Positions 4,134 to 29,061 of a stretch of DNA of 64,000 nt are shown here, piece by piece (the stretch's first letter is position 1; the number at the start of each line of letters is the position of its first letter). This DNA comes from Deltaproteobacteria bacterium tcs-42 (GTDB lineage: Bacteria; Desulfobacterota; Desulfuromonadia; Desulfuromonadales; Geopsychrobacteraceae): assembly GCA_002049545.1 (NCBI GenBank), contig LLYT01000001.1, forward strand, positions 5,605 through 69,604, in the 5' to 3' direction. The notes beneath the pieces were generated by a model. That model did not search any database and was not told the DNA's origin. It saw only the letters and a list, made by a program, of their open reading frames with translations. Made by a program: the position numbers and the translations under genes.

Positions 4134-4210
4134 CGGGATGTGGCGCAGTCTGGTAGCGCACTTGACTGGGGGTCAAGGGGCCGGAGGTTCAAATCCTCTC
4201 ATCCCGACCA
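4134..4210 (+). tRNA. tRNA-Pro(GGG)
   Basis: CGGGATG...CATCCCG acceptor stem, D loop GTCTGGTAG, anticodon arm CTTGA-CTGGGGG-TCAAG, GGTTCAAATCC T arm, encoded CCA end. Confidence 0.97.
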
Positions 4211-6281: not shown

Positions 6282-6294
6282 GGTTGCCTCCAAT

Positions 6295-7677: not shown

Positions 7678-7734
7678 AGTATAAGCTCATTACAGACTGA
7701 TTTATGGCTGAAACTTTTGGCTCAGCTATTCAAA

Positions 7735-8148
7735 TTAACCAGGCAGCTCGCTCAAGGTCCAATACAGATCAATTGTTTTGACCACCTCAACAAATTTCAA
7801 ATAATCAACTGGCTTGATCATGTAGCCGGCAACCCCTAAATTGAAGCTGTCCACCTTATCCTGGTCTTCTTTGGATGTTGTCAGGACAACCACCGGGATA
7901 TTTTTAAGATCGTCGTCTTGCTTGGCAATTTCAAGAAATTCAATACCATTCATTTTGGGCATATTGAGATCGAGCAGGATAATCCCCGGTTGTTCGTTGT
8001 CCGAGTTTTGTAGAAAAGCCAGTGCTTCTTCACCATTATTAGTGATGTCCAGTCGATTCGTGACATTGATTTCTTTTAACGCCCGTTTGACTGTCATGGC
8101 ATCGACCTGATCATCCTCCACCAGCAGAATCGGTTTAGTGCTTCTCAT
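7735..8148 (-). CDS. Single-domain response regulator (Rcp1/CheY-like)
   Basis: ILLVEDD, ILLDLNMPKMNG, VVVLTTS, YMIKP. Confidence 0.9.
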   Translation of the reverse strand: MRSTKPILLVEDDQVDAMTVKRALKEINVTNRLDITNNGEEALAFLQNSDNEQPGIILLDLNMPKMNGIEFLEIAKQDDDLKNIPVVVLTTSKEDQDKVDSFNLGVAGYMIKPVDYLKFVEVVKTIDLYWTLSELPG

Positions 8149-10828
8149 CTGTTATCTCCTTATCGGGCAAAGTAAAAAAGAATGTTGTCCCGTGACCCTC
8201 TTCCGCTTCTACCCAGATTTCACCACCATAAATACTCACTATCTTTTTAACTAAGGCCAGCCCAATACCGGTGCTTTCATTTTCGTCACGGGGTGATAGT
8301 GTCTGGAATATTTGAAAAATTTTGTCGTGGTATTTTTTACTGATGCCAGGTCCATTATCTGAAATCGTGAATTGCCAGAAATTTTCCTCTTTTGTGCAGT
8401 TAATTTCTACCACACCTTTATCTTTATCCATATATTTGATGGCATTTTCGATAAGATTCTGAAAGAGCTGTCCAACTCGAAGCGTATCCAGATAAACAAC
8501 CGGTAACTCATTTGCGATAGAGATCTGAATCGTCTCTGGCGGAGCAATACTGGCGACAAGCTCAGCTATAAGTTCGTTCAAGTCGATCCGTTCCATTTTA
8601 CCCCTGATTTGGCCAATGCGTGAGTAACGGAGAATCCCCTCTATCAGACTATCCATCCGTTTAACTCTCTGCAGGATCAAGTCCATCTGCATCCTGCCGT
8701 CTTCATCAAATGCGTTTGCGTAATCTTCTGCAATCCAGTGGGTCAACTGGCTGATGGCGCGCAAAGGGGCTTTCAAATCGTGAGATACAATATAGGCGAA
8801 CTCTTTTAATTCGGTGTTAATGGCCGCATATTTGCTGTTCAGACTCTGAAGTTCGGCTCTGGATTCGTTGACGTCTTCCACGAGGTGGATGAGTGCTTGC
8901 TCTGACTTTTCAAGTTGGCCCGTTTTTGTTTCCAATGTATCGACCTTGTTTTCAAGGTCCTTCGTCTGCTCGTTAATAAGATCTTCAAGGTGCATTTTGT
9001 TCTCGAATAATTCATTTTCTACCTGTTTAAGTTCCGTAATATCGTAAACAACACCTTCATAATGGGTAATTTCACCACTGGGATTTCTACGCATATAGGT
9101 TGTATCGTTCACCCATTTTACCTCACCATTTTGCGTCAAAATCCGATAAGGTTTATGGGTAAATGTATTCTGCGTTCTCTTTTGGCTGTTGCTGACAACT
9201 TCTCCGGTGACCCTTTCTTGATCGTCAGCGTGAATTAATTCCAGATAACGGACCTTTCCCGACCGGAAATCCAGTGAAGAGTACCCAAATAACATCTCAA
9301 CATTGCCGGATACATAATCGACGGGCCAACCATCTTCATTTCGCCACAAGAAAGCGACTGCCGGGCTCCGGTTAATAATTGTATTGGCTTCTAAAAGAGA
9401 CGCCTGAGCACTCTTGCGGTCGGTCGTGTCAGTGATTATCCCAACCATTCCAATCAAGCGGCGATGGTGATCATAAAGCCCGGTTCCTGAAAGTTCCCCC
9501 CAGAAAACACTGCCATCTTTACGGATGTAACGTTTTTCTCGTTGAAACGTCTGTTGATCTACGTTTTCTGCCAACCTTTCAATTATCGGCGTTTGTAACT
9601 GTTCATCCGGGTAGCTCAGATCACGAAAATTCATGGTCAGAAGTTCATCCCGGCTGTAGCCCGTCATCACTTCCCATTGTCGATTGATCTGTTTATAGAA
9701 GCCTTCTGCATCTAAAGTGACCATCCCAGTCAATTTGTTATCATAAATCGCCTTTAATGCCTCCTCGGTTTTCTTTTTTTCCTCCAATGTGGATTGCAGG
9801 GAAGCTCGATAAATCAGGATTGCAAGGAGAACCGTCCCGGTCAAAAGGAAATAAATCAAGAATTGATCAGCCAGTTTTTCAATGTTTGGTTCCGATGTGA
9901 AACCAATCAGATAACCACTTTTTTCATAGCTGATATCCGCTACAGGATGAAAGACAACTGAAAAGGATTTATTGTTATTGGTCACAGAAAGGTTAAACGC
10001 TACTCCTTGCGACATATTTTTTTGCACCCGAGGGTTATTTTTCAGTTGTGCAAATAAATTGTGTATTTCGGTTGGAATTTCCTCCTTCTGCTCCTGATCT
10101 TGAAAAAGTTCCGAAATATATTTGGAGCGGATAAAGTCCGGGTGGATTTCGTTGGCAACATAGTAAAGTTCATTCTCTGCAAACGACTTTTCTAGACCCC
10201 CTTGTTTTTTCTGAAAAAAAACAAACTGCGTCTGCTGAGCAGTTTCAAGCTGTTGAACCTTGTGATAAATCTTACGATAAGGGTTACTGACTTCAACGGA
10301 TCCAATGTGTTCACCATGATAAAGAAGCGGGTAGACATGCCGATACCCATTGATATAACGACCAGGCTCATAACCGTGAACCGGAAGAAGAGAGCTATTT
10401 ACCAGTGCAATTGCAGGACGTATATCGGTGAGATCATCACCAACATTTTGCGGAAGATGAAACCGCAGTAAAGAGCGATTGTCCGGAAAGTGAAAGTGGA
10501 GGATTTTGACAACATTCTTCTTGCTGCGTTGATAGGTTGCAGACAAAGCTCTGTAGAGCAGGCCACGTTGAATAATCTGTTCATCACCTTCGCTGTGAAC
10601 TATTTTATGAACCAGAGCGAGAATTTTTTCCTGATTTAAAACCTCGTGATAAAATGTATCTGCCAATATTTTGTTGGATTGCAAAACGCTGGAGTAAGCA
10701 ATTTTCTGAGTTTCAGTGCGTTGTGTCAGGATATTAACCCTTAAATTTTTATAGGTTGTTTGTAGAACAAAACCGATCACGAGCATTGCCAGGAGATAAA
10801 ATAACAGAAGTTTGAGCCAGTTTTTCAT
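8135..10828 (-). CDS. Membrane sensor histidine kinase with periplasmic Cache-like domain and two PAS domains
   Basis: Two TM segments, PAS/PAC repeats, FAYIVSHDLKAPL H-box, LIENAIKY, DNGPGI, STGIGL. Confidence 0.9.
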   Translation of the reverse strand: MKNWLKLLLFYLLAMLVIGFVLQTTYKNLRVNILTQRTETQKIAYSSVLQSNKILADTFYHEVLNQEKILALVHKIVHSEGDEQIIQRGLLYRALSATYQRSKKNVVKILHFHFPDNRSLLRFHLPQNVGDDLTDIRPAIALVNSSLLPVHGYEPGRYINGYRHVYPLLYHGEHIGSVEVSNPYRKIYHKVQQLETAQQTQFVFFQKKQGGLEKSFAENELYYVANEIHPDFIRSKYISELFQDQEQKEEIPTEIHNLFAQLKNNPRVQKNMSQGVAFNLSVTNNNKSFSVVFHPVADISYEKSGYLIGFTSEPNIEKLADQFLIYFLLTGTVLLAILIYRASLQSTLEEKKKTEEALKAIYDNKLTGMVTLDAEGFYKQINRQWEVMTGYSRDELLTMNFRDLSYPDEQLQTPIIERLAENVDQQTFQREKRYIRKDGSVFWGELSGTGLYDHHRRLIGMVGIITDTTDRKSAQASLLEANTIINRSPAVAFLWRNEDGWPVDYVSGNVEMLFGYSSLDFRSGKVRYLELIHADDQERVTGEVVSNSQKRTQNTFTHKPYRILTQNGEVKWVNDTTYMRRNPSGEITHYEGVVYDITELKQVENELFENKMHLEDLINEQTKDLENKVDTLETKTGQLEKSEQALIHLVEDVNESRAELQSLNSKYAAINTELKEFAYIVSHDLKAPLRAISQLTHWIAEDYANAFDEDGRMQMDLILQRVKRMDSLIEGILRYSRIGQIRGKMERIDLNELIAELVASIAPPETIQISIANELPVVYLDTLRVGQLFQNLIENAIKYMDKDKGVVEINCTKEENFWQFTISDNGPGISKKYHDKIFQIFQTLSPRDENESTGIGLALVKKIVSIYGGEIWVEAEEGHGTTFFFTLPDKEITDEKH

Positions 10829-18519: not shown

Positions 18520-21414
18520 ATGACGCCCGCACCCGAAGCGGAAGCGCGTGTAAAGATCGATGAGTTGCTTACGGCAGCCGGATGGGATGTGCAGGACATG
18601 AATGCTGTCAACATCCATGCTGCTCGTGGTGTGGCTATTCGTGAATTCCCTCTGGCTTCTGGCCATGGTTTTGCTGATTACTTGCTTTATGTTGACGGCA
18701 AGGCCTCAGGCATCATCGAAGCGAAAAAGGTCGGCACCACGCTGACCGGGATTGAAATCCAGTCCGATAAATACACCAAAGGTCTTCCCGCAGGCCTCCC
18801 GCGCTGGCACAATCCGCTGCCATTCTCCTATCAGTCAACCGGGGTTGAAAATCGCTTCACCAACGGCCTCGACCCCAATCCCCGCTCACGCAACGTCTTT
18901 GCTTTTCATCGGCCGGAACAGCTTGCCAGCCTCATTGGCTCTGCAATTGTGGATCAGGGACTGCCTGCCGATCTGGGTGGAGCATCGTTTGCCGCTGAAA
19001 CTCTGCCGCAAACCTTCCTTGCCCGCCTGCAGAAGATGCCGCCATTAGTTGAAGAAGGTCTCTGGCCGGCTCAGATCAAAGCGATTACCAACCTCGAAGC
19101 TTCTCTGCGTGCCAATCATCCACGTTCGCTGATTCAGATGGCGACCGGTAGCGGTAAGACGTTCACCGCCATCAACTTCATCTACCGGTTGATCAAGTTT
19201 GCCGGGGCGCGGCGGGTGCTGTTCCTGGTCGATCGGGGCAACCTTGGGCGGCAGACCCTCAAGGAATTTCAACAATACGTTTCTCCCTACAACAACTTCA
19301 AGTTCAGTGAAGAGTACATCGTCCAGCATCTCAACTCGAACGTCCTCGATACCACCGCACGAGTGTCTATCTGCACCATCCAGCGACTCTATTCGATGCT
19401 CAAAGGACGTGACCTGCCCGAAGATCTGGATGAGGAATCGGTCGAGTTTGGGAGTTTGTTCAAGGAACCGGAGCCGATTGAGTACAACCCCGATATTCCT
19501 ATTGGCACTTTTGATGTTATCGTCACCGACGAGTGCCATCGTTCCATTTACAACCTCTGGCGGCAAGTGTTGGAATATTTTGATGCCTCCCTCATCGGTC
19601 TTACCGCCACCCCCAGCAAGCAGACCTTCGGTTTTTTCAATCAGAATCTGGTGATGGAGTACGGCCACGAACACGCCGTCGCCGATGGGGTCAATGTCAA
19701 CTACGATGTCTATCGCATTAAGACCGCCATTACAGAACAGGGCGGAGAAGTTGAGGCTGGTTATTACGTCGACAAGCGTGACCGTGACACCCGCCAGGTG
19801 CGTTGGGAGCAGTTGGATGATGATTTTGCCTACGAGGCCAAGCAGCTTGATCGGGATGTGTTTGCCGTTGACCAGATTCGCACGGTGATTCAGACCTACC
19901 GGAACAAACTGTTCAGCGAAATTTTCCCTGGTCGAACCGAGGTGCCAAAAACGCTGATTTTTGCCAAGGATGATTCCCACGCCGAGGATATCGTCAAAAT
20001 TGTCCGTGAGGAGTTCGGCAAGGGGAACGACTTTGCCCAGAAGATCACCTATCGTACTACTGGCGCCAAGCCGGAAGATCTGATTGCCTCATTTCGTAAT
20101 AGTTATTTCCCCCGCATTGCCGTCACTGTCGATATGATCGCCACCGGCACCGACATCAAGGCGTGTGAGTGTGTTTTCTTCATGCGTACCGTCAAGTCCC
20201 GCGCTTATTTTGAGCAGATGAAGGGTCGCGGGGTGCGGATCATCAATGACAACGACCTGCAAGCGGTGACCCCCGATGCTGTCACCAAAGATCATTTCAT
20301 CATTGTCGATGCCGTTGGTGTTTGTGAGATGGATCAGACCGATTCACGCCCCATGGAGCGCAAGAAGAATGTCGGTTTCGAAAAACTGCTGCAGGCGGTT
20401 GCTTTCGGCAATGCGGAAGCCGAGGTGATATCATCCGTCGCCGCCCGTCTGGCGCGGATGGAGAAGAAACTGACCGCCGAAGAGCATCAGCAGGTGGATA
20501 AGCTGCTCGACGGCAAAAGCCTCAAACAGCTTACCGGTGATCTGGTCGATGCCCTTAATCCGGATAATCATATCAGTGAGGTTTACCTGCGCCGAGCGGA
20601 GCAAGGCAGGCAGGCCGATACAACCGACCCGACACCGGAGGAAATTAAACAATCCGCCATTAAGCTGGTCGGTGAAACGGTTAAACCGCTCTGTAACCCG
20701 AATCTGCGTGAGCTGTTGCTGGAGATCAAAAAGAAGAACGAGCAGATTATCGACACGGTCAGTCCCGATACGCTCATTTTCGCTGGTTTTACAGAGGAGA
20801 AGGCCAAGGGCGTGGTCGAGTCGTTTGAGCAGTTTATCGCTGACAACAAAGATGAGATCACCGCATTGCAGGTACTGTACAGCAAGCCGTACAAGCAGCG
20901 GTTACGGTTTGAGGATGTACGTGAGTTGGCAGAGAAGCTGGTTGCCCAAGTGGAACAGTTGCGGGTTTACCAAACCCATCCGCAAGATTGGGAAAAACGG
21001 GTGCCGAATGAGCTGTGGCAGGCTTACCAGAAGCTGGAAGCAAGCAAAGTACGTGGCGCTGCAGCCAGCCATATTTTGACCGATCTGGTGTCACTGGTCC
21101 GTTTTGCCATGCATCAGGAGAATGAGTTGGTACCGTTTCCTGAGCGGGTCAATGCTAATTTCAAGGCATGGATGGCACAGCAGGAAAGCTCGCCTGCGCC
21201 CGGAGGGCAGGTAGGCGGCAAAAGCTTTACCGATGAGCAGCGCAAGTGGCTGGAGATGATTCGTGACCACATTGCCGCGAATCTGCTGATTGAGACGGAT
21301 GATTTTGATTATGCGCCTTTTGCGCAAGAAGGTGGGATAGGGAAGGTTTGGCAATTGTTTGGGGATGATTTGAGTAAGATACTTGATGAATTGAATGAGG
21401 CATTGGCGGCGTGA
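18520..21414 (+). CDS. hsdR: Type I restriction enzyme R subunit (EcoEI/EcoAI-like)
   Basis: ADYLL...IIEAKK nuclease motif, MATGSGKT Walker A, DECHR, EcoEI-type C-terminus; GGGAG RBS. Confidence 0.92.
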   Translation: MTPAPEAEARVKIDELLTAAGWDVQDMNAVNIHAARGVAIREFPLASGHGFADYLLYVDGKASGIIEAKKVGTTLTGIEIQSDKYTKGLPAGLPRWHNPLPFSYQSTGVENRFTNGLDPNPRSRNVFAFHRPEQLASLIGSAIVDQGLPADLGGASFAAETLPQTFLARLQKMPPLVEEGLWPAQIKAITNLEASLRANHPRSLIQMATGSGKTFTAINFIYRLIKFAGARRVLFLVDRGNLGRQTLKEFQQYVSPYNNFKFSEEYIVQHLNSNVLDTTARVSICTIQRLYSMLKGRDLPEDLDEESVEFGSLFKEPEPIEYNPDIPIGTFDVIVTDECHRSIYNLWRQVLEYFDASLIGLTATPSKQTFGFFNQNLVMEYGHEHAVADGVNVNYDVYRIKTAITEQGGEVEAGYYVDKRDRDTRQVRWEQLDDDFAYEAKQLDRDVFAVDQIRTVIQTYRNKLFSEIFPGRTEVPKTLIFAKDDSHAEDIVKIVREEFGKGNDFAQKITYRTTGAKPEDLIASFRNSYFPRIAVTVDMIATGTDIKACECVFFMRTVKSRAYFEQMKGRGVRIINDNDLQAVTPDAVTKDHFIIVDAVGVCEMDQTDSRPMERKKNVGFEKLLQAVAFGNAEAEVISSVAARLARMEKKLTAEEHQQVDKLLDGKSLKQLTGDLVDALNPDNHISEVYLRRAEQGRQADTTDPTPEEIKQSAIKLVGETVKPLCNPNLRELLLEIKKKNEQIIDTVSPDTLIFAGFTEEKAKGVVESFEQFIADNKDEITALQVLYSKPYKQRLRFEDVRELAEKLVAQVEQLRVYQTHPQDWEKRVPNELWQAYQKLEASKVRGAAASHILTDLVSLVRFAMHQENELVPFPERVNANFKAWMAQQESSPAPGGQVGGKSFTDEQRKWLEMIRDHIAANLLIETDDFDYAPFAQEGGIGKVWQLFGDDLSKILDELNEALAA

Positions 21415-22832
21415 GCAATAAGCAAAAAGAACTCCCTCAGACTTTGCCACGTTGGGAAGTGCCTGACAGTTGGAAATGGGTCAGTCTTGCTGATGTTGGG
21501 CAGGTTATTACAGGTAATACCCCTCCGACTTCTGACAAAAATAATTATGGGAATGATATCCCCTATGTAAAACCCCCGGAACTGGTGGATCGTGGGATTT
21601 GGACAACGCCCAATGGTTTGTCTGAAAAGGGTGCTTCCATTGCAAGAACCCTTCCTGCTGGTGCTGTACTTGTCTCTTGTATTGGCGGCCTTGGGAAAAC
21701 GGGTCTTGCAAAAGTACCAGTCGCATTCAATCAACAAATTAACGCAATCATTTTCAATGAGTGTGTCATTCCTGAATATGGTTTCTACTATGCTCAAACC
21801 TTAAATGAATGGCTCCAGGGGGTTTCCTCTGCGACTACTCTTCCGATAGTAAATAAGGGTAAATTTCAAAGAGCACCAATTCCTATTGCTCCTCCAGAGC
21901 AACAAAAAAGCATCGTTGCGGAAATCGAAAAGCAATTCTCCCGCCTCGACGAAGCCGTCGCCAATCTCAAGCGCGTCAAGGCCAACCTCAAACGCTACAA
22001 AGCCGCCGTCCTCAAAGCCGCCGTCGAAGGCAAGCTCACCGAAGAATGGCGTAAACAAAACCCCGATGTTGAACCAGCCGAGAAACTGCTGGAGCGGATT
22101 CTTGCCGAACGGCGTGAGAAATGGCAGGGGAGAGGGAAGTACAAAGAACCCGCTGCGCCGGATACCACCGATCTGCCGGAATTGCCTGAGGGGTGGGGTT
22201 GGTCCAACTTTGAGCAGCTCTCAGAAGCGATTCCCAATTCGCTTAAGGCTGGCCCATTTGGATCAGCTTTAAAGAAGTCCTTTTATGTTCCAGAAGGTTA
22301 TAAGGTTTATGGTCAGGAGCAAGTCATACGCGAAGACCCATATTATGGTGACTACTTCATTGACGAAGAACGTTATGAAAGCCTTAAATCTTGCGCCATC
22401 AAGCCGGGAGATATGCTTATAAGCTTGGTTGGGACAATTGGTCGTGTACTGATTTTGCCAGAAGATAGCGAGCCGGGAATAATCAATCCTCGCTTAGTAA
22501 AAATAAGTCTAAATACAGATATTGTTGAGCCTTTGTATATCAAGATTTTTCTCCAATCTCCGTTTGTAAAATACCTCTTCGCCCTGGCTTCCCATGGTGG
22601 AACTATGGATATTTTAAATCTTGGAATCTTGAAGGGAATACCTGTCCCTATTCCGCCTCTTCTAGAGCAAAAAGCAATATTGAATGAATTCGCTAGTTTT
22701 TCTTCGGTTGAGGAGAGATTGGAAGATACGGTGGGGGCAAATCAGGCGAGAAGTAATAGGTTGCGTCAGTCAATTTTGAAAAAAGCTTTCTCCGGTCAAC
22801 TGCTGCCAAGTTCTTACGTCGCTGAGAAGTAA
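21411..22832 (+). CDS. hsdS: Type I RM specificity subunit with two TRDs
   Basis: IPIAPPEQQKSIVAEIEKQFSRLD central region; PVPIPPLLEQ...LRQSILKKAFSG C-terminal region; GTG start overlaps hsdR stop. Confidence 0.92.
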   Translation: MSNKQKELPQTLPRWEVPDSWKWVSLADVGQVITGNTPPTSDKNNYGNDIPYVKPPELVDRGIWTTPNGLSEKGASIARTLPAGAVLVSCIGGLGKTGLAKVPVAFNQQINAIIFNECVIPEYGFYYAQTLNEWLQGVSSATTLPIVNKGKFQRAPIPIAPPEQQKSIVAEIEKQFSRLDEAVANLKRVKANLKRYKAAVLKAAVEGKLTEEWRKQNPDVEPAEKLLERILAERREKWQGRGKYKEPAAPDTTDLPELPEGWGWSNFEQLSEAIPNSLKAGPFGSALKKSFYVPEGYKVYGQEQVIREDPYYGDYFIDEERYESLKSCAIKPGDMLISLVGTIGRVLILPEDSEPGIINPRLVKISLNTDIVEPLYIKIFLQSPFVKYLFALASHGGTMDILNLGILKGIPVPIPPLLEQKAILNEFASFSSVEERLEDTVGANQARSNRLRQSILKKAFSGQLLPSSYVAEK

Positions 22833-22843
22833 AGGGGTTTGCT

Positions 22844-23545
22844 ATGAAATCTGAAAAGCTATGTCACATCAATATTTATTGCGACGAAAGCAGGCACACT
22901 TCTAACAGTGAAGATCCCTATATGGTTATTGGCGCTCTCGCCTGTACGCGTGAAAAAAAACAGGAAATTTATCACGTCATAAACCTGCTAAGAAAAAAGT
23001 ACAATGTTTGGAAAGAATTCGGCTGGAAAACTTTGTCGCCAAGTCGGAAGGATTTTTATTGGGAACTGCTTGAGCTTTTCCGTAATTCTGCTGATTTGAG
23101 TTTTCGCTGTCTTGTAGTCGATAGGAATGTTCTGGATCATGAGCAATACAGCGACGGTGATTCAGAGCTTGGTTTTTACAAGCTTTATTACCAGATGTTA
23201 GTGCATTGGTTGCAGCCGCAATGTGCTTATCACCTTTATCTTGATTGGCAGCAGAACAGAGAACAGGGACGTTTTCGGGATTTAGGTCATATTCTAGAGC
23301 GAAAGCTTTCTGGCCGAGCCAAAATTGAATGTCTTGAGCCGGTAAGCTCCAAAGAGCAGCACCTTGTCCAATTGTGTGATCTGTTTATTGGGGCGGTTGG
23401 ATACGCTTGGAATACCAGGGCGGGAAGTGACACCAAGGTTGAGTTTTGCAATGCATTGGCCGCGAACATGGAAATGTCTTCTTTGAAGGTGAGTACCTAC
23501 AAAAGTGAACAGAAATTCAATATCTTTCATTTTATAGGTCGCTGA
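22844..23545 (+). CDS. DUF3800 domain protein (RNase H-like acidic motifs)
   Basis: IYCDES N-terminal motif, YLD mid motif, VQLCDLFIGA C-terminal motif. Confidence 0.8.
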   Translation: MKSEKLCHINIYCDESRHTSNSEDPYMVIGALACTREKKQEIYHVINLLRKKYNVWKEFGWKTLSPSRKDFYWELLELFRNSADLSFRCLVVDRNVLDHEQYSDGDSELGFYKLYYQMLVHWLQPQCAYHLYLDWQQNREQGRFRDLGHILERKLSGRAKIECLEPVSSKEQHLVQLCDLFIGAVGYAWNTRAGSDTKVEFCNALAANMEMSSLKVSTYKSEQKFNIFHFIGR

Positions 23546-23546
23546 A

Positions 23547-24065
23547 ATGTCTGAACATCTCTGGTCTTTACTGAGGCTAAAGGCTGAATCGGGTGATGAA
23601 GTAAAGCAGGCATATTTTAAGAAATATCTTGAAATCTATGTACGCACTTCCGATGGGCAAACGGTCGAAATTTTCGATTGGTTAGGCAATCGAATTTTTT
23701 TCAATCCGCATTTTAATTCTTTTGATCACGCGTTTACTGAGAACAGGAATTACCGTCATAGTCATGGAGTGCATTCAAAAAAGTTATGTAAAAACCGTGC
23801 GAGACGGCTTCTCTGGATAAAGGAAACTCTCAAAGGAGAAGTAGGGACGATTGAGCGTCGGCAAGAGTTTCGAGAAGACAGTCGAGGGCGGATGAAAAAG
23901 AGACGGACTCTGGTTGTGTTGGAAGAGCTATATGTAGTTGTTCTGGAGGAGAGAGAGGGGCGCAATGGGTATGATTTTGTTTCCGCATTCCCTGCTGACG
24001 CAGATTATCTTCGGAAAATACGAAAAAGAAGTACTCTGCTGGAAACAAAAAAGCCCCAGTCTTAA
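23547..24065 (+). CDS. Basic hypothetical protein, possibly BECR/RelE-fold RNase
   Basis: 172 aa, Arg/Lys-rich; FDHAF, RARRLLWIK, YVVVLE, FVSAFP resemble PBECR-type nucleases from memory; starts 1 nt after the DUF3800 stop. Confidence 0.5.
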   Translation: MSEHLWSLLRLKAESGDEVKQAYFKKYLEIYVRTSDGQTVEIFDWLGNRIFFNPHFNSFDHAFTENRNYRHSHGVHSKKLCKNRARRLLWIKETLKGEVGTIERRQEFREDSRGRMKKRRTLVVLEELYVVVLEEREGRNGYDFVSAFPADADYLRKIRKRSTLLETKKPQS

Positions 24066-24129
24066 CGGCGACTGAGGCGCTGCCACGGTCCTGAGCCTTA
24101 AGCAAAGGGCCAACAGCCTTACGGCTTAA
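24043..24129 (-). ncRNA. Predicted ~85-nt small RNA convergent on the 23547-24065 gene
   Basis: Own sigma70-like promoter upstream, two hairpins, intrinsic terminator (fully paired with a U-G wobble only on the minus strand, followed by TTTTTTGTTT). Confidence 0.6.
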
Positions 24130-24134
24130 TTTAA

Positions 24135-24163
24135 ATATTACCCGACCTCGGCTTTCTGTGCAA
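24135..24163 (-). promoter_or_regulatory. sigma70-type promoter TTGCAC-N17-TAATAT for the predicted sRNA
   Basis: Plus strand ATATTA 24135-24140, 17-bp spacer, GTGCAA 24158-24163. Confidence 0.6.
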
Positions 24164-24209: not shown

Positions 24210-24314
24210 ATGATTCCTGCAGCAACCATGTTAATACTCTGGAATTATTGTAATGCCCTCCCTGTCTGCCTCATTGTTTTCAGCGCGGGCAATCGCGATT
24301 TTTCGTGGAAGTAG
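24210..24314 (+). pseudogene. Degenerate hsdM 5' remnant #1 with a 33-nt palindromic insert
   Basis: MIPAATMLILWNYCNAL-[11 codons]-RD aligns to MTPAAIVSKLWNYCNVLRD of intact hsdM. Confidence 0.7.
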
Positions 24315-24420: not shown

Positions 24421-25422
24421 ATGAACCCTCAAACTGAACAGAATGAGATTGTTCTCTTTCAGACGGACGATGGTCAGACGCAGCTTAAAGTTCAGCTTGA
24501 CCATGATACCGTCTGGCTGAGTCTCTATCAAATGGCAGAGCTTTTTCAGCGGGACAAATCAGTCGTCTCCAGGCACGTGAACGCTATTTTTAAAAGTGGC
24601 GAATTGGTGCGAGAGACAACTGTTGCAAAAAATGCAACAGTTCAGATTGAAGGCGGGCGTGAGGTCCAAAGGAGCATCGAATACTTTAATCTTGATGTTA
24701 TTATCTCCGTCGGCTATCGCGTCAATTCCAAACTCGGAATTCTGTTCCGCCAATGGGCTACCCGCGTTTTACGTGACCACCTGGTCAAAGGCTACAGCAT
24801 CAATGAACAGCGTTTGCGTGAAGAGACTGCCAAGTTGCGGGAAATGCAACAGACTGTCGATTTGCTTGCACGCACCCTGACCACTCAGGAATTGATCACT
24901 GCCACCGGTAAAGATGTGTTGCGTGTCATCAGTGACTATGCCTACGCACTGGCCACGTTGGATCGTTATGATCACGGCAGCTTGATTATTGATAAAACCA
25001 CCGCCAAAGTCTTGCATGTCATCGACTACGAGGAAGGCATTGCTCTGGTCAGGTCGATGAAAGGGGAGTTTGACGGTCTGTTTGGCATCGAAAAAGATCA
25101 GGGGTTCAAGAGTGCTCTTGGCACCATCTACCAGACATTTGATGGTAAAGAACTCTATCCCAGTGTCGAGGAAAAAGCCGCCAATCTGCTCTATTTTGTG
25201 GTGAAAAATCACGCATTCAGTGATGGCAACAAGCGTATAGCTGCGGCAATATTTATCTATTTTCTCGCTGCCAACGGTATTTTGTATCGTCCCGATGGCT
25301 CCAAGCGCCTTGCCGACAACGCTTTAGTGGCATTGACCCTGTTGATTGCCGAAAGTCGGCCTGAAGAGAAAGAGACGATTGTCAAAGTCATCATCAACCT
25401 TATCAACCGGAGTAACGACTAA
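24421..25422 (+). CDS. RhuM-like DNA-binding domain fused to Doc-type Fic domain
   Basis: TVWLSLYQMAELF, YFNLDVIISVGYRVNS (RhuM-like); HAFSDGNKRIA (Doc-type motif). Confidence 0.85.
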   Translation: MNPQTEQNEIVLFQTDDGQTQLKVQLDHDTVWLSLYQMAELFQRDKSVVSRHVNAIFKSGELVRETTVAKNATVQIEGGREVQRSIEYFNLDVIISVGYRVNSKLGILFRQWATRVLRDHLVKGYSINEQRLREETAKLREMQQTVDLLARTLTTQELITATGKDVLRVISDYAYALATLDRYDHGSLIIDKTTAKVLHVIDYEEGIALVRSMKGEFDGLFGIEKDQGFKSALGTIYQTFDGKELYPSVEEKAANLLYFVVKNHAFSDGNKRIAAAIFIYFLAANGILYRPDGSKRLADNALVALTLLIAESRPEEKETIVKVIINLINRSND

Positions 25423-25427
25423 ATATT

Positions 25428-25661
25428 ATGACCTCAGCTGCAATTGTATCCAAACTTTGGAATTTCTGTAACGTTCTTCGCGACGATGGCATGAGCTACC
25501 TGTCTGCGTGCGGTCACGCACAGGCAGGCGGCGACTACGTCCCTGCCTGCATTTCATGCGCAGGCAAGGAACAGTTCACCTATCTGCTTTTTCTCAAAAT
25601 GGCAGACGAGCGAACCAAACCGCCCTACAACCAGCTAAGCAATATCCCGAGTCATTGTTGA
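25428..25661 (+). pseudogene. hsdM 5' remnant #2 with two in-frame palindromic inserts (30 and 27 nt)
   Basis: Collinear with the first ~56 codons of intact hsdM apart from inserts LSACGHAQAG and PACISCAGK; homology stops just before the fic gene. Confidence 0.9.
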
Positions 25662-25662
25662 T

Positions 25663-26304
25663 ATGATGTCCCCTTCAGTTCGCTACGACACATCCGGCTT
25701 GCCGGAAGACCAATATGAACCCGGTTCAGATAGATCTGTTCTGAAAAATCTGCGTGGAATTACCTCTTCGGAAGAGATGCAGATTGTTGAGACAGAGGAA
25801 TTGTGGCGAACACAAGAATATCTATTGGGAGAGATTGAACAAGATCAGAAATTCACTGTTAATGATATCTATGAAATGCATCGAATCTGGCTCGAAACGG
25901 TTTATTCGTGGGCCGGAAAAGATCGTCAGGTCAATATCAGCAAAGGCGGGTTCGATTTCGCCATGGCTCGGGTGATTCCGAACATGATGGCGGAGTTTGA
26001 GCGGAAACAGTTGGCGGTACATACCCCGTGCCAATGTACCGATATAAATGAAATCGCTCAGGCTCTGGCGCAAGTGCATGTAGAGCTGATGCTGATACAC
26101 CCCTTTCGTGAGGGGAACGGTAGACTCGGTCGTTTATTTGCCACACTGATGGCATTGCAGGCAGGTTTGCCGCTACTTGATTTCAGTGATTGGTCAGGAT
26201 TAAAGAGAGAAGAATACTTTGCTGCGGTTCGTGCAGGCATGGATATGAAATATGATCCGATGAGGCAACTATTTCTTGAGGTGATAGAAGGTTCAGGCAG
26301 ATAA
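25663..26304 (+). CDS. Fic-domain AMP-transferase (class I FicT-like toxin)
   Basis: Canonical HPFREGNGRLGR motif; YEPGS...VLKNLRGI N-terminus. Confidence 0.9.
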   Translation: MMSPSVRYDTSGLPEDQYEPGSDRSVLKNLRGITSSEEMQIVETEELWRTQEYLLGEIEQDQKFTVNDIYEMHRIWLETVYSWAGKDRQVNISKGGFDFAMARVIPNMMAEFERKQLAVHTPCQCTDINEIAQALAQVHVELMLIHPFREGNGRLGRLFATLMALQAGLPLLDFSDWSGLKREEYFAAVRAGMDMKYDPMRQLFLEVIEGSGR

Positions 26305-26317
26305 CGGAAGAGGCCGG

Positions 26318-26536
26318 TTAAGATTTCTTTGAGGTGTTGTAGTTCGTCCCGGAGGTAGATTCGTGGACGCAGTTTGTCGAGCTGCTGTTCTTGGATACGA
26401 ACTGTCCCGTAACAGCATCACGCTTGACGCTAATCCCTTCAATTGCGGAAGACGATTCTATGTTGCGAGTCATCGATTTTTCACGAATTGAGCGGTTTTG
26501 AAGATGTCGATTGGTTGTTAATAGTGACTTTTTCAT
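26318..26536 (-). CDS. Small putative Fic antitoxin (FicA-like)
   Basis: 72 aa with SSAIEG matching the (S/T)xxxE(G/N) inhibitory motif; ends 13 nt from the fic stop. Confidence 0.6.
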   Translation of the reverse strand: MKKSLLTTNRHLQNRSIREKSMTRNIESSSAIEGISVKRDAVTGQFVSKNSSSTNCVHESTSGTNYNTSKKS

Positions 26537-26600: not shown

Positions 26601-28136
26601 ATGACACCTGCAGCAATCGTATCAAAACTCTGGAACTACTGTAACGTCCTCCGCGACGACGGCATGAGCTACGGCGACTATGTCGAACAGCTCACCTATC
26701 TGCTTTTTCTCAAAATGGCAGACGAACGGACCAAGCCGCCGTACAATCAACCGAGCAATATCCCGGCTGAATATTCATGGGCAACACTGGCGAAGAAGGA
26801 CGGTGACGAACTGTTCGACCACTACCGCCATACCCTGGAAAACCTCGGCAACGAAAAAGGTCTGCTCGGTCTGATCTTTAACAAGTCGCAGAACAAATTC
26901 CAAGACCCTGCCAAACTGCGTCGCCTGATTGTCGATTTGATCGACAGTGAAAACTGGTCGGTGATGAGCGCCGATGTCAAAGGTGATGCCTACGAGGGGC
27001 TGCTGGAGAAAAATGCTCAGGACACCAAGAGCGGTGCCGGGCAGTATTTTACCCCGCGTCCGCTGATTCAGGCGATAGTTGATGTGGTTGCTCCCAAACC
27101 GGGGGAGACCATCAGTGACCCGGCCTGCGGAACCGGTGGTTTCTTGCTTGCGGCGCACGACAGCCTGGTCGACAACCATCCGCACATGACCAAAGACGAG
27201 CGGAAAAAGCTTAAGGAGGGGACCTTCAAGGGTTGGGAGTTGGTGCAGTCGACAGCACGGCTCTGTGCCATGAACCTGATGCTGCATGGTATCGGTGCCG
27301 GTAATGGCAGTACGAATCTTCCTTTAGTCGTCTCTGATTCTCTAGCGGCTGATCCGGGCGACCGTTTCGACATCATCCTCACCAATCCCCCCTTCGGAAA
27401 GAAGAGCAGTACTACCATTGTTGGTGAAGACGGCAAGGTTGCCAAAGAGAAGGAAACCGTTGAGCGTGACGACTTCTGGGCAACAACCTCAAACAAGCAG
27501 CTCAACTTCATCCAGCACGTCAAAACCCTTCTCAAACAGCATGGCCGTGCCGCCGTAGTTGTGCCGGACAACGTGCTGTTCGAAGGCGGAGCAGGGGAGA
27601 CCATCCGCCGCAAGCTGCTGCACGAATGCGATGTTCACACCATCCTGCGTCTGCCGACCGGACTCTTCTACGCCCAAGGGGTCAAAGCGAACGTTATCTT
27701 TTTCGACCGCAAACCAGCCAGTGAAACGCCCTGGACAAAAAAGCTATGGATTTACGATCTGCGCACCAATACGCACTTCACCCTGAAAACCAATCCGCTC
27801 AAACGCAGTGATCTGGATGATTTTGTCGCTTGCTATTCTGCGGGGAACTTGAAAGCTCGCAAACCGACTTGGACGGAAAATATGAAGGACGACTTGCCTG
27901 CGCAAAACGACAGTTTTGCAGGCAGGTGGCGCAGTTACGACTACGAAGACTTGATCGCCCGCGACAAAGCCAGCCTCGATATCTTCTGGCTCAAGGATGA
28001 TTCGCTGGAGGATTCAGACAACCTTCCAGAGCCGGGTGTACTGGCTGCAGAGATTGTTGAAGATCTGCAGGCGGCTTTGGAGCAGTTTAGGGAGATTGCT
28101 GAGGATTTGGGCGAAGACGAGTTTGTTGCCGAATAA
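26601..28136 (+). CDS. hsdM: Type I RM N6-adenine methyltransferase
   Basis: GQYFTPR, DPACGTGGFL (motif I), NPPF (motif IV); AGGA RBS. Confidence 0.95.
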   Translation: MTPAAIVSKLWNYCNVLRDDGMSYGDYVEQLTYLLFLKMADERTKPPYNQPSNIPAEYSWATLAKKDGDELFDHYRHTLENLGNEKGLLGLIFNKSQNKFQDPAKLRRLIVDLIDSENWSVMSADVKGDAYEGLLEKNAQDTKSGAGQYFTPRPLIQAIVDVVAPKPGETISDPACGTGGFLLAAHDSLVDNHPHMTKDERKKLKEGTFKGWELVQSTARLCAMNLMLHGIGAGNGSTNLPLVVSDSLAADPGDRFDIILTNPPFGKKSSTTIVGEDGKVAKEKETVERDDFWATTSNKQLNFIQHVKTLLKQHGRAAVVVPDNVLFEGGAGETIRRKLLHECDVHTILRLPTGLFYAQGVKANVIFFDRKPASETPWTKKLWIYDLRTNTHFTLKTNPLKRSDLDDFVACYSAGNLKARKPTWTENMKDDLPAQNDSFAGRWRSYDYEDLIARDKASLDIFWLKDDSLEDSDNLPEPGVLAAEIVEDLQAALEQFREIAEDLGEDEFVAE

Positions 28137-28158: not shown

Positions 28159-29061
28159 ATGCAATCCATAATTTCTATTGCGACGCCTGCAGCTCTTTAC
28201 CTACTAGGTGTTTTCCTCTTTACCTTTCCGCTTGTCTGGCTACAGAAACGCAAGCAGAAAGGTAAAAGATCACCTTTAAGTGGTCATTTGTTGCGTAGTC
28301 CTGGCACTTCATTGCAGAGCCGGATCGAAGAATTGAGTTTGGATATCATGGCATATATTGCTATTTTTCCTGCCTTCCCGCTGCTGATTTATTCGTTTTA
28401 TCTCCCATTGATTCATGCTCAAAAGACCACGACCTATAGTGTTTTGATCATCATTGGTATCGTGATTGTAGTGTTACTTTGGATTGGCATTAAGGTCTAT
28501 CGATTGATGACGGAAAGAAATAACTGTCGCTTGGGTCTCGATGCAGAAATGGCGGTAGGTCAAGAACTTAACCAGCTTATGTTTAATGGGTTTCGAGTTT
28601 ATCATGACTTTCCGGCGGAAAATTTCAACATTGATCATGTCGCGGTTGGTCCGACAGGCGTCTATGCCGTTGAGACGAAAGGGAGGACAAAGGCGATTAG
28701 AAAGGCCGGAAAGGTTGAGGCGACTGTCGTTTATGATGGAAAGACACTGCAATTTCCAAGTTGGTATGAAACCGAACCGTTACTGCAGGCACAACGTCAA
28801 GCCGACTGGCTCAGAAAATGGCTAACCAGTGCAGTTGGCGAGCCGGTGTATGTGCAAGCAGTTTTGGCTCTCCCAGGATGGTATGTTGTACGTAAAGCTG
28901 ATCGACCAATAAAACTGATCAGTGGTAAAGAAGCCTATTCCCTGGCAAAACCAAGCGGCATTACCCTTCTTGGTAACGACATGATCCAACGGATTTCCCA
29001 TCAGGTCGAACAGCGTTGTCGGGACGTTGAACCGGTTGCTTACCGAAAAGAAAAGAAATAA
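28159..29061 (+). CDS. Membrane-anchored NERD (nuclease-related) domain protein
   Basis: N-terminal TM helices, GLDAEMAV, YHD, NIDHVAVGPTGVYAVETK. Confidence 0.8.
   Translation: MQSIISIATPAALYLLGVFLFTFPLVWLQKRKQKGKRSPLSGHLLRSPGTSLQSRIEELSLDIMAYIAIFPAFPLLIYSFYLPLIHAQKTTTYSVLIIIGIVIVVLLWIGIKVYRLMTERNNCRLGLDAEMAVGQELNQLMFNGFRVYHDFPAENFNIDHVAVGPTGVYAVETKGRTKAIRKAGKVEATVVYDGKTLQFPSWYETEPLLQAQRQADWLRKWLTSAVGEPVYVQAVLALPGWYVVRKADRPIKLISGKEAYSLAKPSGITLLGNDMIQRISHQVEQRCRDVEPVAYRKEKK

Follow-up and report, generated by a model that had tools for sequence, protein, structure and literature searches.

In the window (the 64,000-nucleotide stretch of Deltaproteobacteria bacterium tcs-42 that was analysed), a three-part module is inserted between hsdS and hsdM of a type I restriction-modification (RM) operon, and consists of a DUF3800 gene (M04A), a gene for a predicted RNase (M04B) and a small structured RNA on the opposite strand (Table 1). 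The linkage of the three parts is obligate and tightly conserved across relatives, and homologues of the RNA are found, without the two proteins, in uncultivated phage contigs. The reading that we put forward, at slightly less than an even chance, is that the RNA inhibits the nuclease pair in trans, bound to protein, as a type III-like antitoxin or guard, and that the phage copies are decoys. The interval 22844-24163 holds both genes, the small RNA and the -35 box of the latter. The gene order and spacing given in the preliminary description are confirmed by the ORF coordinates: 11 nt separate hsdS from the DUF3800 ORF and 1 nt separates that ORF from the 172-aa ORF (junction TGA A ATG), and M04A and M04B appear to be translationally coupled.

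Table 1. Features of the module and of the operon around it (window coordinates; parts of the small RNA are predicted).
Feature	Position	Strand	Description	Evidence
hsdR	18520-21414	+	type I RM operon, upstream of hsdS	ORF list
hsdS	21411-22832	+	host type I RM operon	ORF list
M04A	22844-23545	+	DUF3800 gene, 233 aa	Pfam PF12686, PADLOC PDC-M04A
M04B	23547-24065	+	gene for basic 172-aa protein	PADLOC PDC-M04B
Small RNA gene	about 24128-24043	-	about 80-87 nt	covariance-model match, covariation
Putative small-RNA promoter	24135-24163	-	-35 TTGCAC (24163-24158), 17-nt spacer, -10 TAATAT (24140-24135)	
P1 hairpin	24115-24126	-	AGCC-GUAA-GGCU	4/4 pairs changed on both sides
P2 helix	24087-24111	-	GGCCC/GGACC, C.A middle pair, around P2a	covariation
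P2a	24103-24095	-	GCU-UAA-GGC	covariation
Linker	24082-24086	-	GUGGC, single-stranded, near-invariant	alignments
P3 terminator hairpin	24053-24078	-	GCCUCAGUC-GCCGUUAA-GACUGGGGC	terminator scan

RM loci had been named at the outset as hotspots for defence cargo, and the type I RM locus here is indeed packed with defence candidates, with PDC-S23, PDC-S04 and NERD flanking the PDC-M04 pair in the Pfam and PADLOC annotation. Duplicated hsdM 5′ ends are also present in the window. Among the 43 related loci, about 20 have hsdS upstream and/or hsdM downstream by tblastn, and in 14 loci hsdM starts about 104-112 nt past P1 of the small RNA. When all loci with M04AB plus the RNA and enough flanking sequence are counted, hsdM is nearby in only 14 of 67, and RM genes do not adjoin most of them. 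The possibility that the small RNA is primarily a partner of hsdM was rejected on this account, hsdM being found in 14 of 67 loci and the RNA at 43 of 43 M04B genes. PrrC, in the EcoprrI type I RM locus, is likewise an RNase-type effector nested in the operon as a second line of defence. It is RM-embedded, unlike most of the loci considered here; the RM proteins keep it in check until the phage peptide Stp sets it off, and RNA plays no part. RM failure as a trigger for the present module is an analogy with PrrC and no more, and hsdM is nearby at only about a fifth of the loci counted above.

The preliminary description knew of no characterised system with this composition. The protein pair is already catalogued as PDC-M04, a PADLOC phage defence candidate with two protein models, PDCs having been picked by guilt-by-embedding (Payne et al. 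2024, bioRxiv 10.1101/2024.01.29.577857); the main text of that preprint makes no mention of DUF3800, M04 or an RNA component. The window carries the same pair, with full-length model matches and the type I RM embedding of the PDC definition. The catalogue entry is without the RNA, and it is the small RNA and its phage homologues that are added here.

M04A matches the Pfam model of DUF3800 (PF12686) at E 1e-12 (49.3 bits, with a cut-off of 21), PDC-M04A at E 7.2e-75 over profile positions 4-226 of 232, and phrog_3732 at E 3e-36. The RNase H-like acidic motifs that had been read in it hold across the family: D14 and E15 are invariant among 45 homologues, and the QxxD motif is present as QLCD (residues 176-179). 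With an AF2 model (pLDDT 87.6), the top 17 Foldseek matches in the PDB are all RNase HII/H2, the best being 1eke (E 2e-5, probability 1.0, with TM only 0.35-0.45). As modelled, the M04A fold is RNase H2-like, with a conserved DE...QxxD signature, and its catalytic activity is a prediction from that fold.

M04B is basic (K+R 35 against D+E 25) and matches PDC-M04B at E 6.1e-73 over profile positions 1-170 of 171. The BECR-like character proposed for it emerges from the family, since the window protein by itself gives a score against PBECR2 (PF18810) of just 14.9 bits (E 0.032; gathering cut-off 27.1), while E<=0.01 is reached by 29 of 38 family members, the best of which, at 31.5 bits (E 2e-7), exceeds the gathering score. 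His61 (in FDHAF) is invariant in the family and lies within helix 56-64, and a serine or threonine is kept at position 146, in the SAFPA strand, where the stretch F144-A150 is conserved and A147 is invariant. Judged by sequence and by helix and strand position, M04B carries the PBECR active-site pattern of a histidine plus S/T (PMC5512222), with S/T146 as the candidate catalytic partner of His61. Structural comparison, proposed earlier for both proteins, gave a clear answer for M04A and a divided one for M04B. The AF2 model of M04B (pLDDT 89.6) matches a phage PBECR-type protein in BFVD (A0A8S5VG57, E 3e-7, TM 0.59) and, more weakly, polyvalent and MuF-like proteins; in the PDB, Foldseek found nothing significant (best match the TA toxin 7vd7_A, E 0.21), and neither did a sequence-profile search. 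M04B is predicted to be a metal-independent endoRNase of the PBECR2 (phage Barnase-EndoU-ColicinE5/D-RelE) family. At the C-terminus, homologues of M04B use two different frames of the same DNA, ending in KKPQS or K(S/N)PSLNGD before the stop.

The convergent structured RNA said to overlap the M04B stop is borne out by a terminator at 24078-24053, by a covariance-model match and by covariation. Three hairpin domains with four helices make up the RNA. P3 includes a conserved U.G pair and is directly followed, on the minus strand, by six U residues (24052-24047), and the M04B stop codon (24063-24065 on the plus strand) sits inside the P3 loop. The putative promoter in the window matches the consensus at 7 of 12 positions only. 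A sigma70-type promoter matching at 9/12 or better is found in 60% of 100 homologous loci, against 1.8% of control 60-mers, and at 66 of the 100 loci the -10 box has a common end position in the model. Transcription would start at about 24128, some 7 nt past the -10 box, and end in the U-run 24052-24043; promoter, GC-rich hairpin and U-tract all lie on the minus strand, as in an intrinsic-terminator sRNA gene. The stem of P1 varies in sequence under a GNRA or UUCG loop, most sequences have YAA in the P2a loop, and the UGGC of the linker is retained even among remote relatives. The P3 stem is invariant across the close family; when remote relatives are added, 6 of its 9 pairs covary and the loop GCC..UAA is unchanged. 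A pseudoknot between two invariant segments, the GUGGC linker and the GCC of the P3 loop, is possible.

Because the single-sequence folding z-score of the window RNA is weak (-1.9), a structured RNA could not be proved from the window sequence by itself. The covariance model has one match in the window (24042-24140, 104 bits, E 1e-25), where 0.00 chance occurrences of the P3 pattern are expected. In three separate alignments the covariation exceeds that of the shuffles (0/500): the score is 0.286 against 0.111 in shuffles for 101 sequences (0/500), and 0.481 against 0.164 for 16 diverse sequences, in which 15 of 21 pairs have changed on both sides. Alignment pair 49-71, for instance, is AU in 53 sequences, GC in 32 and UA in 10, and pair 56-64 is GC in 55 and AU in 42. 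The minus strand is the probable RNA strand, as the GNRA and UUCG loops occur on it only and 94.2% of cells pair there, against 89.5% on the other strand. A DNA site of the integron attC type was considered separately and rejected, there being no R′/R″ core sites; the strand-specific G.U pairs, the GNRA and UUCG loops, the promoter and the U-tail also rule it out.

The position of the RNA raises the possibility that it is chiefly a cis antisense or terminator element, one that, through convergent transcription and pairing with an M04AB (and hsdM) read-through transcript, would set mRNA stability or shield the cargo from hsdM. Such a mechanism would be type I TA-like, analogous to that of bsrG/SR4 and txpA/RatA, type I pairs that work through a 3′ overlap. 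The RNA does overlap the M04B stop codon, M04B has no plus-strand terminator behind it (the U-tract of the hairpin is confined to the minus strand), and the short spacing to hsdM would suit such a role. Metatranscriptome contigs from soil, wetland and sludge span the RNA locus of relatives and run into M04B, connecting its 3′ end with the RNA region, although these are unstranded unitigs that reveal no discrete transcript. Yet no more than about 20 nt overlap around the stop codon, and in a gammaproteobacterial group, whose RNA also has no U-tail, the RNA is placed after the stop codon with no overlap at all. Moreover, M04B is a basic, enzyme-like protein of 172 aa and not a small hydrophobic membrane peptide, so the module does not qualify as type I TA. 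The covariation maintains an intramolecular fold, and stand-alone copies exist in phage tRNA arrays and beside unrelated cargo. Finally, since both strands mutate together, cis-antisense pairing needs no sequence conservation, and the invariance of loops and linker across phyla would be superfluous for it; because these stay fixed while the stems covary, a partner in trans is indicated. We consider a chiefly cis-acting RNA quite improbable.

Structured RNAs beside DUF3800 genes are not new in themselves. The motifs DUF3800-I to DUF3800-XI, along with drum and skipping-rope, were described by Weinberg et al. 2017 (PMC5737381), lying beside DUF3800 genes on either strand or side, with no function assigned there; several have Rho-independent terminators, and UAA trinucleotides are frequent. 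The main text of that paper does not contain a constant PBECR2-type partner or copies in phage tRNA arrays. The window RNA resembles DUF3800-I to XI in DUF3800 adjacency, terminator and UAA trinucleotides, and it shares the trait of the Rfam DUF3800 class, a conserved structured RNA consistently adjoining DUF3800 genes. Its fold, however, is unlike theirs, and no Rfam 15 model matches. Rfam 15 contains DUF3800-I (RF02969) and DUF3800-IX (RF02968) and, presumably, the other nine motifs. The connection drawn at first to published DUF3800-associated motifs therefore does not extend to identity, the window RNA not being among DUF3800-I to XI as in Rfam 15. No Rfam 15 family was found for it in 13 kb at E<=1 or in 171 nt at E<=10, and the loci of remote relatives likewise returned no Rfam 15 family and none of the DUF3800 motifs. 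Rfam 15 scans of the viral loci (at the gathering score) and others gave only tRNAs and terminator-driven noise (Spot_42, 15 bits). On comparative grounds, the small RNA is structured and new, probably with a promoter of its own from which it would be transcribed.

What turns these three elements into a module is their linkage. The protein search returned 43 M04B homologues, spanning Desulfuromonadales to Gammaproteobacteria, Nitrospirota, Zetaproteobacteria and Campylobacterota, and the small RNA is at the stop codon of all 43; M04A is directly upstream of M04B wherever the contig permits. Cultured carriers of the module include Desulfuromusa kysingii DSM 7343 (same architecture as in the window, 85-89% protein identity), Geopsychrobacter electrodiphilus, Alteromonas sp. 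IB21, Halioxenophilus aromaticivorans KU68F and Spongiibacter pelagi KMU-158. The order DUF3800, M04B, RNA recurs among remote relatives of M04B (profile E 1e-10 to 1e-35), with RNA scores of 67.5 bits at L175, 54 at L173, 31 at L180, 29 at L178 and 19 at L179. The preliminary description had named the absence of a downstream structured RNA from homologous gene pairs among its grounds for abandoning the idea; in all 43 homologues and in the remote relatives, the RNA is there. BLAST of the locus and RNA against E. coli genomes, cultured phages and plasmids found no RNA or M04B match, yielding just three 20-nt chance matches (E 0.8) inside phage CDSs.

The RNA also occurs apart from the protein pair. 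Its homologues are present in uncultivated viral contigs, at least 30 distinct ones, that have neither M04A nor M04B nearby, the absence of both from these contigs being the outcome of a degenerate-pattern scan and of HMM searches on the flanks. About half of the classified full phage copies lie inside tRNA arrays, in the orientation of the tRNAs. By BLAST, no cultured phage carries the RNA; the phage copies come from uncultivated contigs predicted to be viral. About a quarter of the copies from the RNA-pattern search are without M04AB; those in RM loci adjoin other cargo, namely a zeta-toxin-like kinase, RhuM plus Doc, and PIN, and orphan copies occupy the same position before hsdM. Locus L014 has two copies. 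In at least six orphans the final 20-40 codons of M04B survive, which marks these copies as remnants; the others are not demonstrably so.

The orphans before hsdM with other cargo, the pair of copies in L014 and the hsdM 5′ duplications in the window would fit a scheme in which M04A is a protein antitoxin or regulator of M04B, type II-like, and the RNA is an accessory with a role of its own, as a tRNA-like stable RNA, a recombination-hotspot landmark next to hsdM or a hitch-hiker. M04A and M04B are closely coupled, and the would-be antitoxin gene precedes that of the toxin, an order seen in many type II TA operons. Furthermore, Legionella Tn-seq scored a strain-specific DUF3800 gene as essential, together with antitoxins; this result is consistent with DUF3800 cassettes holding a toxin that needs restraint, but it could instead mark the DUF3800 protein, and not the RNA, as the antitoxin. 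Against an accessory RNA stands its presence at all 43 close loci and in remote relatives, many with no hsdM nearby, and the derivation of at least six orphans from modules that contained M04B. The acidic, catalytic-type residues conserved in M04A argue for an enzyme over a plain antitoxin. We regard the type II-like scheme as distinctly unlikely.

The phage copies bear on the sign of the regulation. A phage gains from carrying an inhibitor of the nucleases, not an activator, and the phage-borne copies are thus circumstantial support for an inhibitory role. According to the model that we put forward, the small RNA, of about 85 nt, would be constitutively transcribed, convergent to the 3′ end of M04B, and would act in trans by binding protein and inhibiting the M04A/M04B nuclease pair. 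The recognition surface would comprise the GCC..UAA loop of P3, the YAA of P2a and the UGGC linker, and the RNA may be a pseudo-substrate of the BECR RNase. Infection would halt host transcription or destroy the RNA, releasing the RNase, which would cut cellular RNA (tRNA, rRNA or mRNA) so that the infection is aborted; phages would reply by expressing a decoy, the same RNA, from their tRNA arrays. The proposed logic is analogous to that of ToxIN, in which an endoRNase toxin is held inactive by a cognate structured RNA and released on infection, and from which phages escape by encoding a pseudo-ToxI RNA. The module would nonetheless be type III-like by definition and not by architecture. In ToxIN, tandem repeats of the RNA precede the toxin gene on its own strand and are processed by the toxin, whereas the RNA here is single-copy, convergent and downstream, with a putative promoter of its own, which counts against the type III-like reading; the module also has an extra RNase H-like protein, and its toxin fold would be BECR as opposed to that of ToxN/AbiQ. 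Other points against the inhibitor model are the M04AB-less copies near other cargo, the 7/12 match of the window promoter and the absence of the U-tail in the gammaproteobacterial group.

The regulation could also have the opposite sign. By analogy with the msDNA of type VII retrons and with the guide RNAs of other RNase H-fold enzymes, the RNA could be a positive cofactor of a ribonucleoprotein effector, serving as scaffold, activator or a substrate processed by DUF3800. RNase H-fold enzymes often work on or with bound nucleic acid, and type VII retrons combine an RT with DUF3800, either as a domain or as a separate protein (Mestre et al. 2020, PMC7736814). DUF3800 is fused to or associated with their reverse transcriptases, and it is present in Cas12a2/a3 and Cas13 loci as well. 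The window module and these retrons, each presumed to serve in defence, share an RNase H2-like DUF3800 part with an N-terminal DE, and a structured non-coding nucleic acid. Here, in contrast, there is no reverse transcriptase and no msr/msd, the partner is a BECR RNase, and M04A retains the Q of QxxD that the retron-associated DUF3800 proteins lack. The obligate linkage of the RNA, its conserved loops and the association of eleven unrelated RNA motifs with DUF3800 genes would all be accommodated by a cofactor. Nevertheless, the RNA has no variable guide-like segment, the variable P1 being a closed tetraloop hairpin, and no RNA:DNA hybrid partner is evident. A phage that carries the RNA without the proteins would, moreover, be arming the host effector against itself, unless the phage RNA is what is sensed. 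We judge a positive cofactor to be unlikely.

A broader version of the inhibitor model, possible in our view though rather doubtful, is that DUF3800-BECR pairs constitute a widespread Abi system with an RNA antitoxin or guard, that phages of many lineages counter it with RNA mimics encoded in their tRNA arrays, and that the eleven orphan DUF3800 motifs are likewise cognate regulators, of analogous DUF3800 toxin modules. DUF3800 genes and their RNA motifs have been without a functional hypothesis since 2017. The present locus joins a DUF3800 RNase H-like protein, a constant BECR-type RNase and a new covarying RNA that crosses phyla, and the occurrence of that RNA in phage tRNA arrays without the proteins makes a long-standing DUF3800 puzzle directly testable. 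If the inhibitor model is true, RNA-antitoxin defence would be known in a new architecture, part of the non-tRNA genes that lie in phage tRNA clusters would gain a function, and defence annotation tools would have to count RNA components.

Conservation at the 3′ end of M04B, the 172-aa basic protein of the cassette, provided the first clue to an RNA. The C-termini of its homologues are of two kinds, KKPQS or K(S/N)PSLNGD, each followed directly by the stop, and both are one nucleotide string, AAAA(A)GCCCCAGTCTTAACGGCGACTGA, in two reading frames; it is the DNA, rather than the peptide, that is conserved here. Around this site the preliminary description had the layout exactly right, with gaps of 11 nt and 1 nt, a DUF3800 gene (M04A), the 172-aa gene and a convergent RNA over its stop, as judged from ORF coordinates and a terminator scan that places the M04B stop within a minus-strand hairpin (table). 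One U.G pair of this hairpin on the minus strand would be a C.A mismatch if read on the plus strand, and its U-tract is found on the minus strand only.

Features of the type I restriction-modification (RM) locus, the M04 cassette and the small RNA in the window
Feature	Position	Strand	Remarks
tRNA-Pro(GGG)	4134-4210		sole tRNA gene within the window
hsdR	18520-21414	+	first gene of RM locus
hsdS	21411-22832	+	after hsdR
M04A ORF, 233 aa	22844-23545	+	starts 11 nt past hsdS
M04B ORF, 172 aa	23547-24065	+	1 nt past TGA of M04A ORF
M04B stop codon	24063-24065	+	inside loop of minus-strand terminator hairpin
GC-rich terminator hairpin	24078-24053	-	then TTTTTTGTTT (terminator scan)
P1 of small RNA		-	hairpin, sequence variable; GNRA or UUCG cap
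P2 of small RNA	24087-24111	-	5 bp, encloses P2a
P2a of small RNA		-	3 bp, YAA loop
Linker of small RNA		-	invariant GUGGC
P3 of small RNA		-	9-bp hairpin, loop GCCGUUAA; followed by U-tail
hsdM 5′-end remnant	24216-24262		degenerate; just past small RNA promoter (PAATMLILWNYCNAL)
RhuM+Fic	24421-25422		PADLOC PDC-S23, E 2e-136; defence candidate; fusion gene on promoter side of small RNA
hsdM 5′-end fragment	25428-25661		77 codons with internal insertions
Fic protein	25663-26304		PADLOC PDC-S04, E 1e-74; VbhT/Fic-like by NCBIfam; defence candidate
Small convergent ORF	26318-26536	-	past Fic gene, same RM locus
hsdM, intact	26601-28136	+	after cargo
NERD-domain protein	28159-29061		after hsdM; defence candidate in RM locus

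Loci gathered by scanning one genome per species for a protein pattern (n=43, at least 5 bacterial phyla or classes) have a ~95-nt element at the M04B stop codon in 43/43 cases. A covariance model trained on these sequences gives 101 loci scores of 43-110 bits, with one match in the window; in the resulting alignment, which like all covariance-model alignments leans toward the model's own structure, 94.2% of cells are paired and the covariation score is 0.286 versus 0.111 in shuffles (0/500), with slid controls at or below 0.088. P2, P2a and P3 were recovered independently by MAFFT and RNAalifold. GNRA (28) and UUCG (~19) loops occur on the minus strand only, the other strand having none, and pairing would drop to 89.5% on that other strand. 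Moreover, a sigma70-type promoter stands at a fixed distance (at least 9/12 match in 60% of loci versus 1.8% of control 60-mers), the end of the -10 box falls at one shared position in 66/100 loci, and the boxes in the window are TTGCAC-17-TAATAT. On these sequence comparisons the small RNA is real, as had been claimed. Its behaviour resembles that of the DUF3800-associated motifs described by Weinberg et al. (PMC5737381), but the Rfam scan proposed in the preliminary description, once run, placed it outside the DUF3800 motifs of that database: no family in Rfam 15 matches, though DUF3800-I and DUF3800-IX are among them.

Several variants of the RNA are worth recording. In some copies (L043 at 5491-5603 on the minus strand, also L061 and L133) an extra GC-rich hairpin (GCGCGCUAGUGCGCG) sits between the GUGGC linker and P3, marking a permissive site, variable insertion being typical of structured RNAs. 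In Gammaproteobacteria (L026-L032, L038) the RNA lies wholly past the M04B stop and has CUUAUCUCC instead of the U-run after P3, so something other than intrinsic termination keeps P3 in this subgroup. At its middle pair P2 has a C.A mismatch in the window RNA and ~40% of sequences, with U.G or U-A in most of the others; this may reflect conservation of a non-canonical pair, perhaps a protonated one, or a role in recognition.

The association with the two proteins runs deep. In virtually every locus that extends far enough, M04B is directly preceded by M04A. An exhaustive profile search puts M04B relatives in 286 clusters at 50% identity (the close ones, 14), and for the remote members whose contigs were examined (profile E 1e-10 to 1e-35), a DUF3800 gene is immediately upstream wherever upstream sequence exists, and a convergent RNA at the stop codon scores 67.5, 54, 31, 29 and 19 bits with the covariance model. 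Gene pairs lacking a downstream RNA would have told against a linked module; the RNA was found at 43/43 stops and at remote loci. The P3 stem in the most remote loci reads CCCCGUGA/UCACGGGG instead of CCUCAGUC/GACUGGGG, with compensatory changes at 6/9 pairs, and the loop GCC(C)GUUAA, the UGGC linker and the P2a loop are kept. With the remote relatives added, both-sided changes are seen at 15/21 pairs and covariation is 0.481 versus 0.164 (0/500). Such covarying stems around fixed loops are the hallmark of an RNA that is recognised in trans. The alternative that the RNA is mainly a cis-antisense or terminator element seems quite improbable, since both strands of a purely cis-antisense pair change together and no fixed sequence is needed.

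As to the proteins, M04A is a DUF3800 protein by Pfam (E 1e-12) and PDC-M04A by PADLOC (E 7e-75), and also matches phrog_3732, an uncharacterised phage protein family. D14-E15 and D179, the last residue of the Q176xxD179 motif in the window protein, are invariant in an alignment of 45 homologues, and the only PDB structures that an AlphaFold2 model (pLDDT 87.6) matches significantly are those of RNase HII/H2 (E 2e-5, probability 1.0, TM modest at 0.35-0.45), in agreement with published statements of an RNase H2-like fold for DUF3800. M04B is PDC-M04B (E 6e-73) and has nothing above threshold in Pfam. The window protein matches PBECR2 weakly (E 0.03), and 29/38 aligned homologues do so at E<=0.01, the best exceeding the gathering score. 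Across the family His61, which lies in a helix (FDHAF[ST]E), is invariant, and an S/T is kept in the C-terminal SAFPA strand, the active-site pattern reported for PBECR and colicin D-like RNases (PMC5512222). For the M04B model (pLDDT 89.6) nothing in the PDB reached significance, a TA toxin coming closest (E 0.21); in BFVD the model matches a siphovirus protein that is uncharacterised (E 3e-7, TM 0.59), with weaker matches to polyvalent and MuF-like proteins. The PBECR2 matches, the active-site pattern and the phage-protein match support the BECR-like assignment at family level.

The order of the RM locus is hsdR, hsdS, cargo, hsdM. The hsdM 5′ end is present three times in the window, with RhuM-Fic and Fic cassettes between the copies, which suggests serial cargo insertion or exchange through recombination at this end; L014, a related locus, likewise has an hsdM′ fragment (5687-5929). 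A metagenome scan for the exact P3 pattern, in which P3 is fixed by construction and its invariance is no evidence, gave ~123 true RNA copies, ~83 with M04B and ~25 with enough flank and no M04B, the counts being approximate because copies were classified by ad hoc regular expressions. At least 6 of these orphan RNAs retain the final 20-40 codons of M04B and are therefore remnants of cargo replacement. Others adjoin zeta-toxin-like kinase, RhuM+Doc or PIN genes and usually lie ~104-112 nt before an hsdM. A distinct subtype (P2/P2a CCAUUACCUAUGGUUCAGG) recurs beside a zeta-toxin-like P-loop kinase gene directly before hsdM (L014, L088, L099, L118, L143); L014 has two minus-strand copies ~3.2 kb apart (5490-5588 and 8743-8838), one kinase-linked and one M04B-linked. 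In L073, L087/L139 and L090 the orphan is convergent to a RhuM-like + Doc/Fic gene pair, and no remnant of M04B could be detected beside it.

Unexpectedly, both RNA types also occur in predicted viral contigs of IMG/VR, and no M04A/B was found in the flanks of the RNA there. About half of the classified full viral copies sit in tRNA arrays, in tRNA orientation: 8 nt upstream of tRNA-Ser in a 147-kb contig, within a 20-tRNA array (L213), adjoining tRNA-Tyr (L047), and between tmRNA and tRNA-Leu in a 345-kb, jumbo-phage-like contig (L045/L107). The bacterial promoter is absent from the tRNA-array copies, which are thus probably matured from the tRNA transcript. Aligned together, 3 bacterial M04-linked and 14 phage RNAs are 96.8% paired, with covariation of 0.304 versus 0.121 (0/500). 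Neither the RNA nor M04B was found in cultured phages, plasmids or E. coli genomes. Near the RNA of L045/L107, the tmRNA, the tRNA-Leu, a PTH2-like peptidyl-tRNA hydrolase and a YqeY-like protein, the last two labelled from ORF translations alone, make a translation-related neighbourhood (features at 3355-3737, 7619-8011 and 5932-6381, all minus strand). A "minimal" phage version, made up solely of AGGCUUCGG and the type-2 P3 hairpin (CCCGUGAGCC-UUYAA-UCACGGG), lacks a U-tail and directly follows a conserved phage CDS, whose strand it shares (L184, L186, L189, L192, L200, L206, L212, L220, L239 and duplicates).

The best-supported reading, tentatively held, is an RNA-restrained nuclease module with the small RNA as inhibitor. 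In it the effector RNase would be M04B, with M04A as an RNase H-like partner, perhaps for RNA turnover, processing or sensing, and the RNA as a constitutively made, trans-acting, protein-bound inhibitor. Phages already use tRNA arrays to counter tRNA-directed defences, and the phage copies would fit as decoys, since an inhibitor of a host RNase would benefit the phage. The loops display UAA/YAA, and we speculate that they act as pseudo-substrate for a RelE/colicin-like enzyme; this feature had been noticed in other DUF3800-associated motifs by Weinberg et al. (PMC5737381). That the RNA is instead a positive cofactor is unlikely. In Legionella Tn-seq a DUF3800 gene, next to antitoxins, scored essential, which hints that DUF3800 cassettes are toxic when unbalanced; the same essentiality fits equally well with M04A as the antitoxin, and a small probability is given to an arrangement with a protein antitoxin in which the RNA is an accessory. 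The logic of an inhibitor RNA resembles that of type III TA (ToxIN, pseudo-ToxI), whose defining layout differs from the architecture here, and partial parallels exist in retron type VII and PrrC. In PADLOC the two proteins belong to PDC-M04; PDC systems are candidates whose sole defining feature is that they lie within BREX, DISARM or type I RM loci, and the text describing them mentions neither DUF3800 nor RNA (Payne et al. 2024, bioRxiv 10.1101/2024.01.29.577857). These results give the uncharacterised candidate system PDC-M04 a third component: an RNA of a new class, homologues of which are carried by phages.
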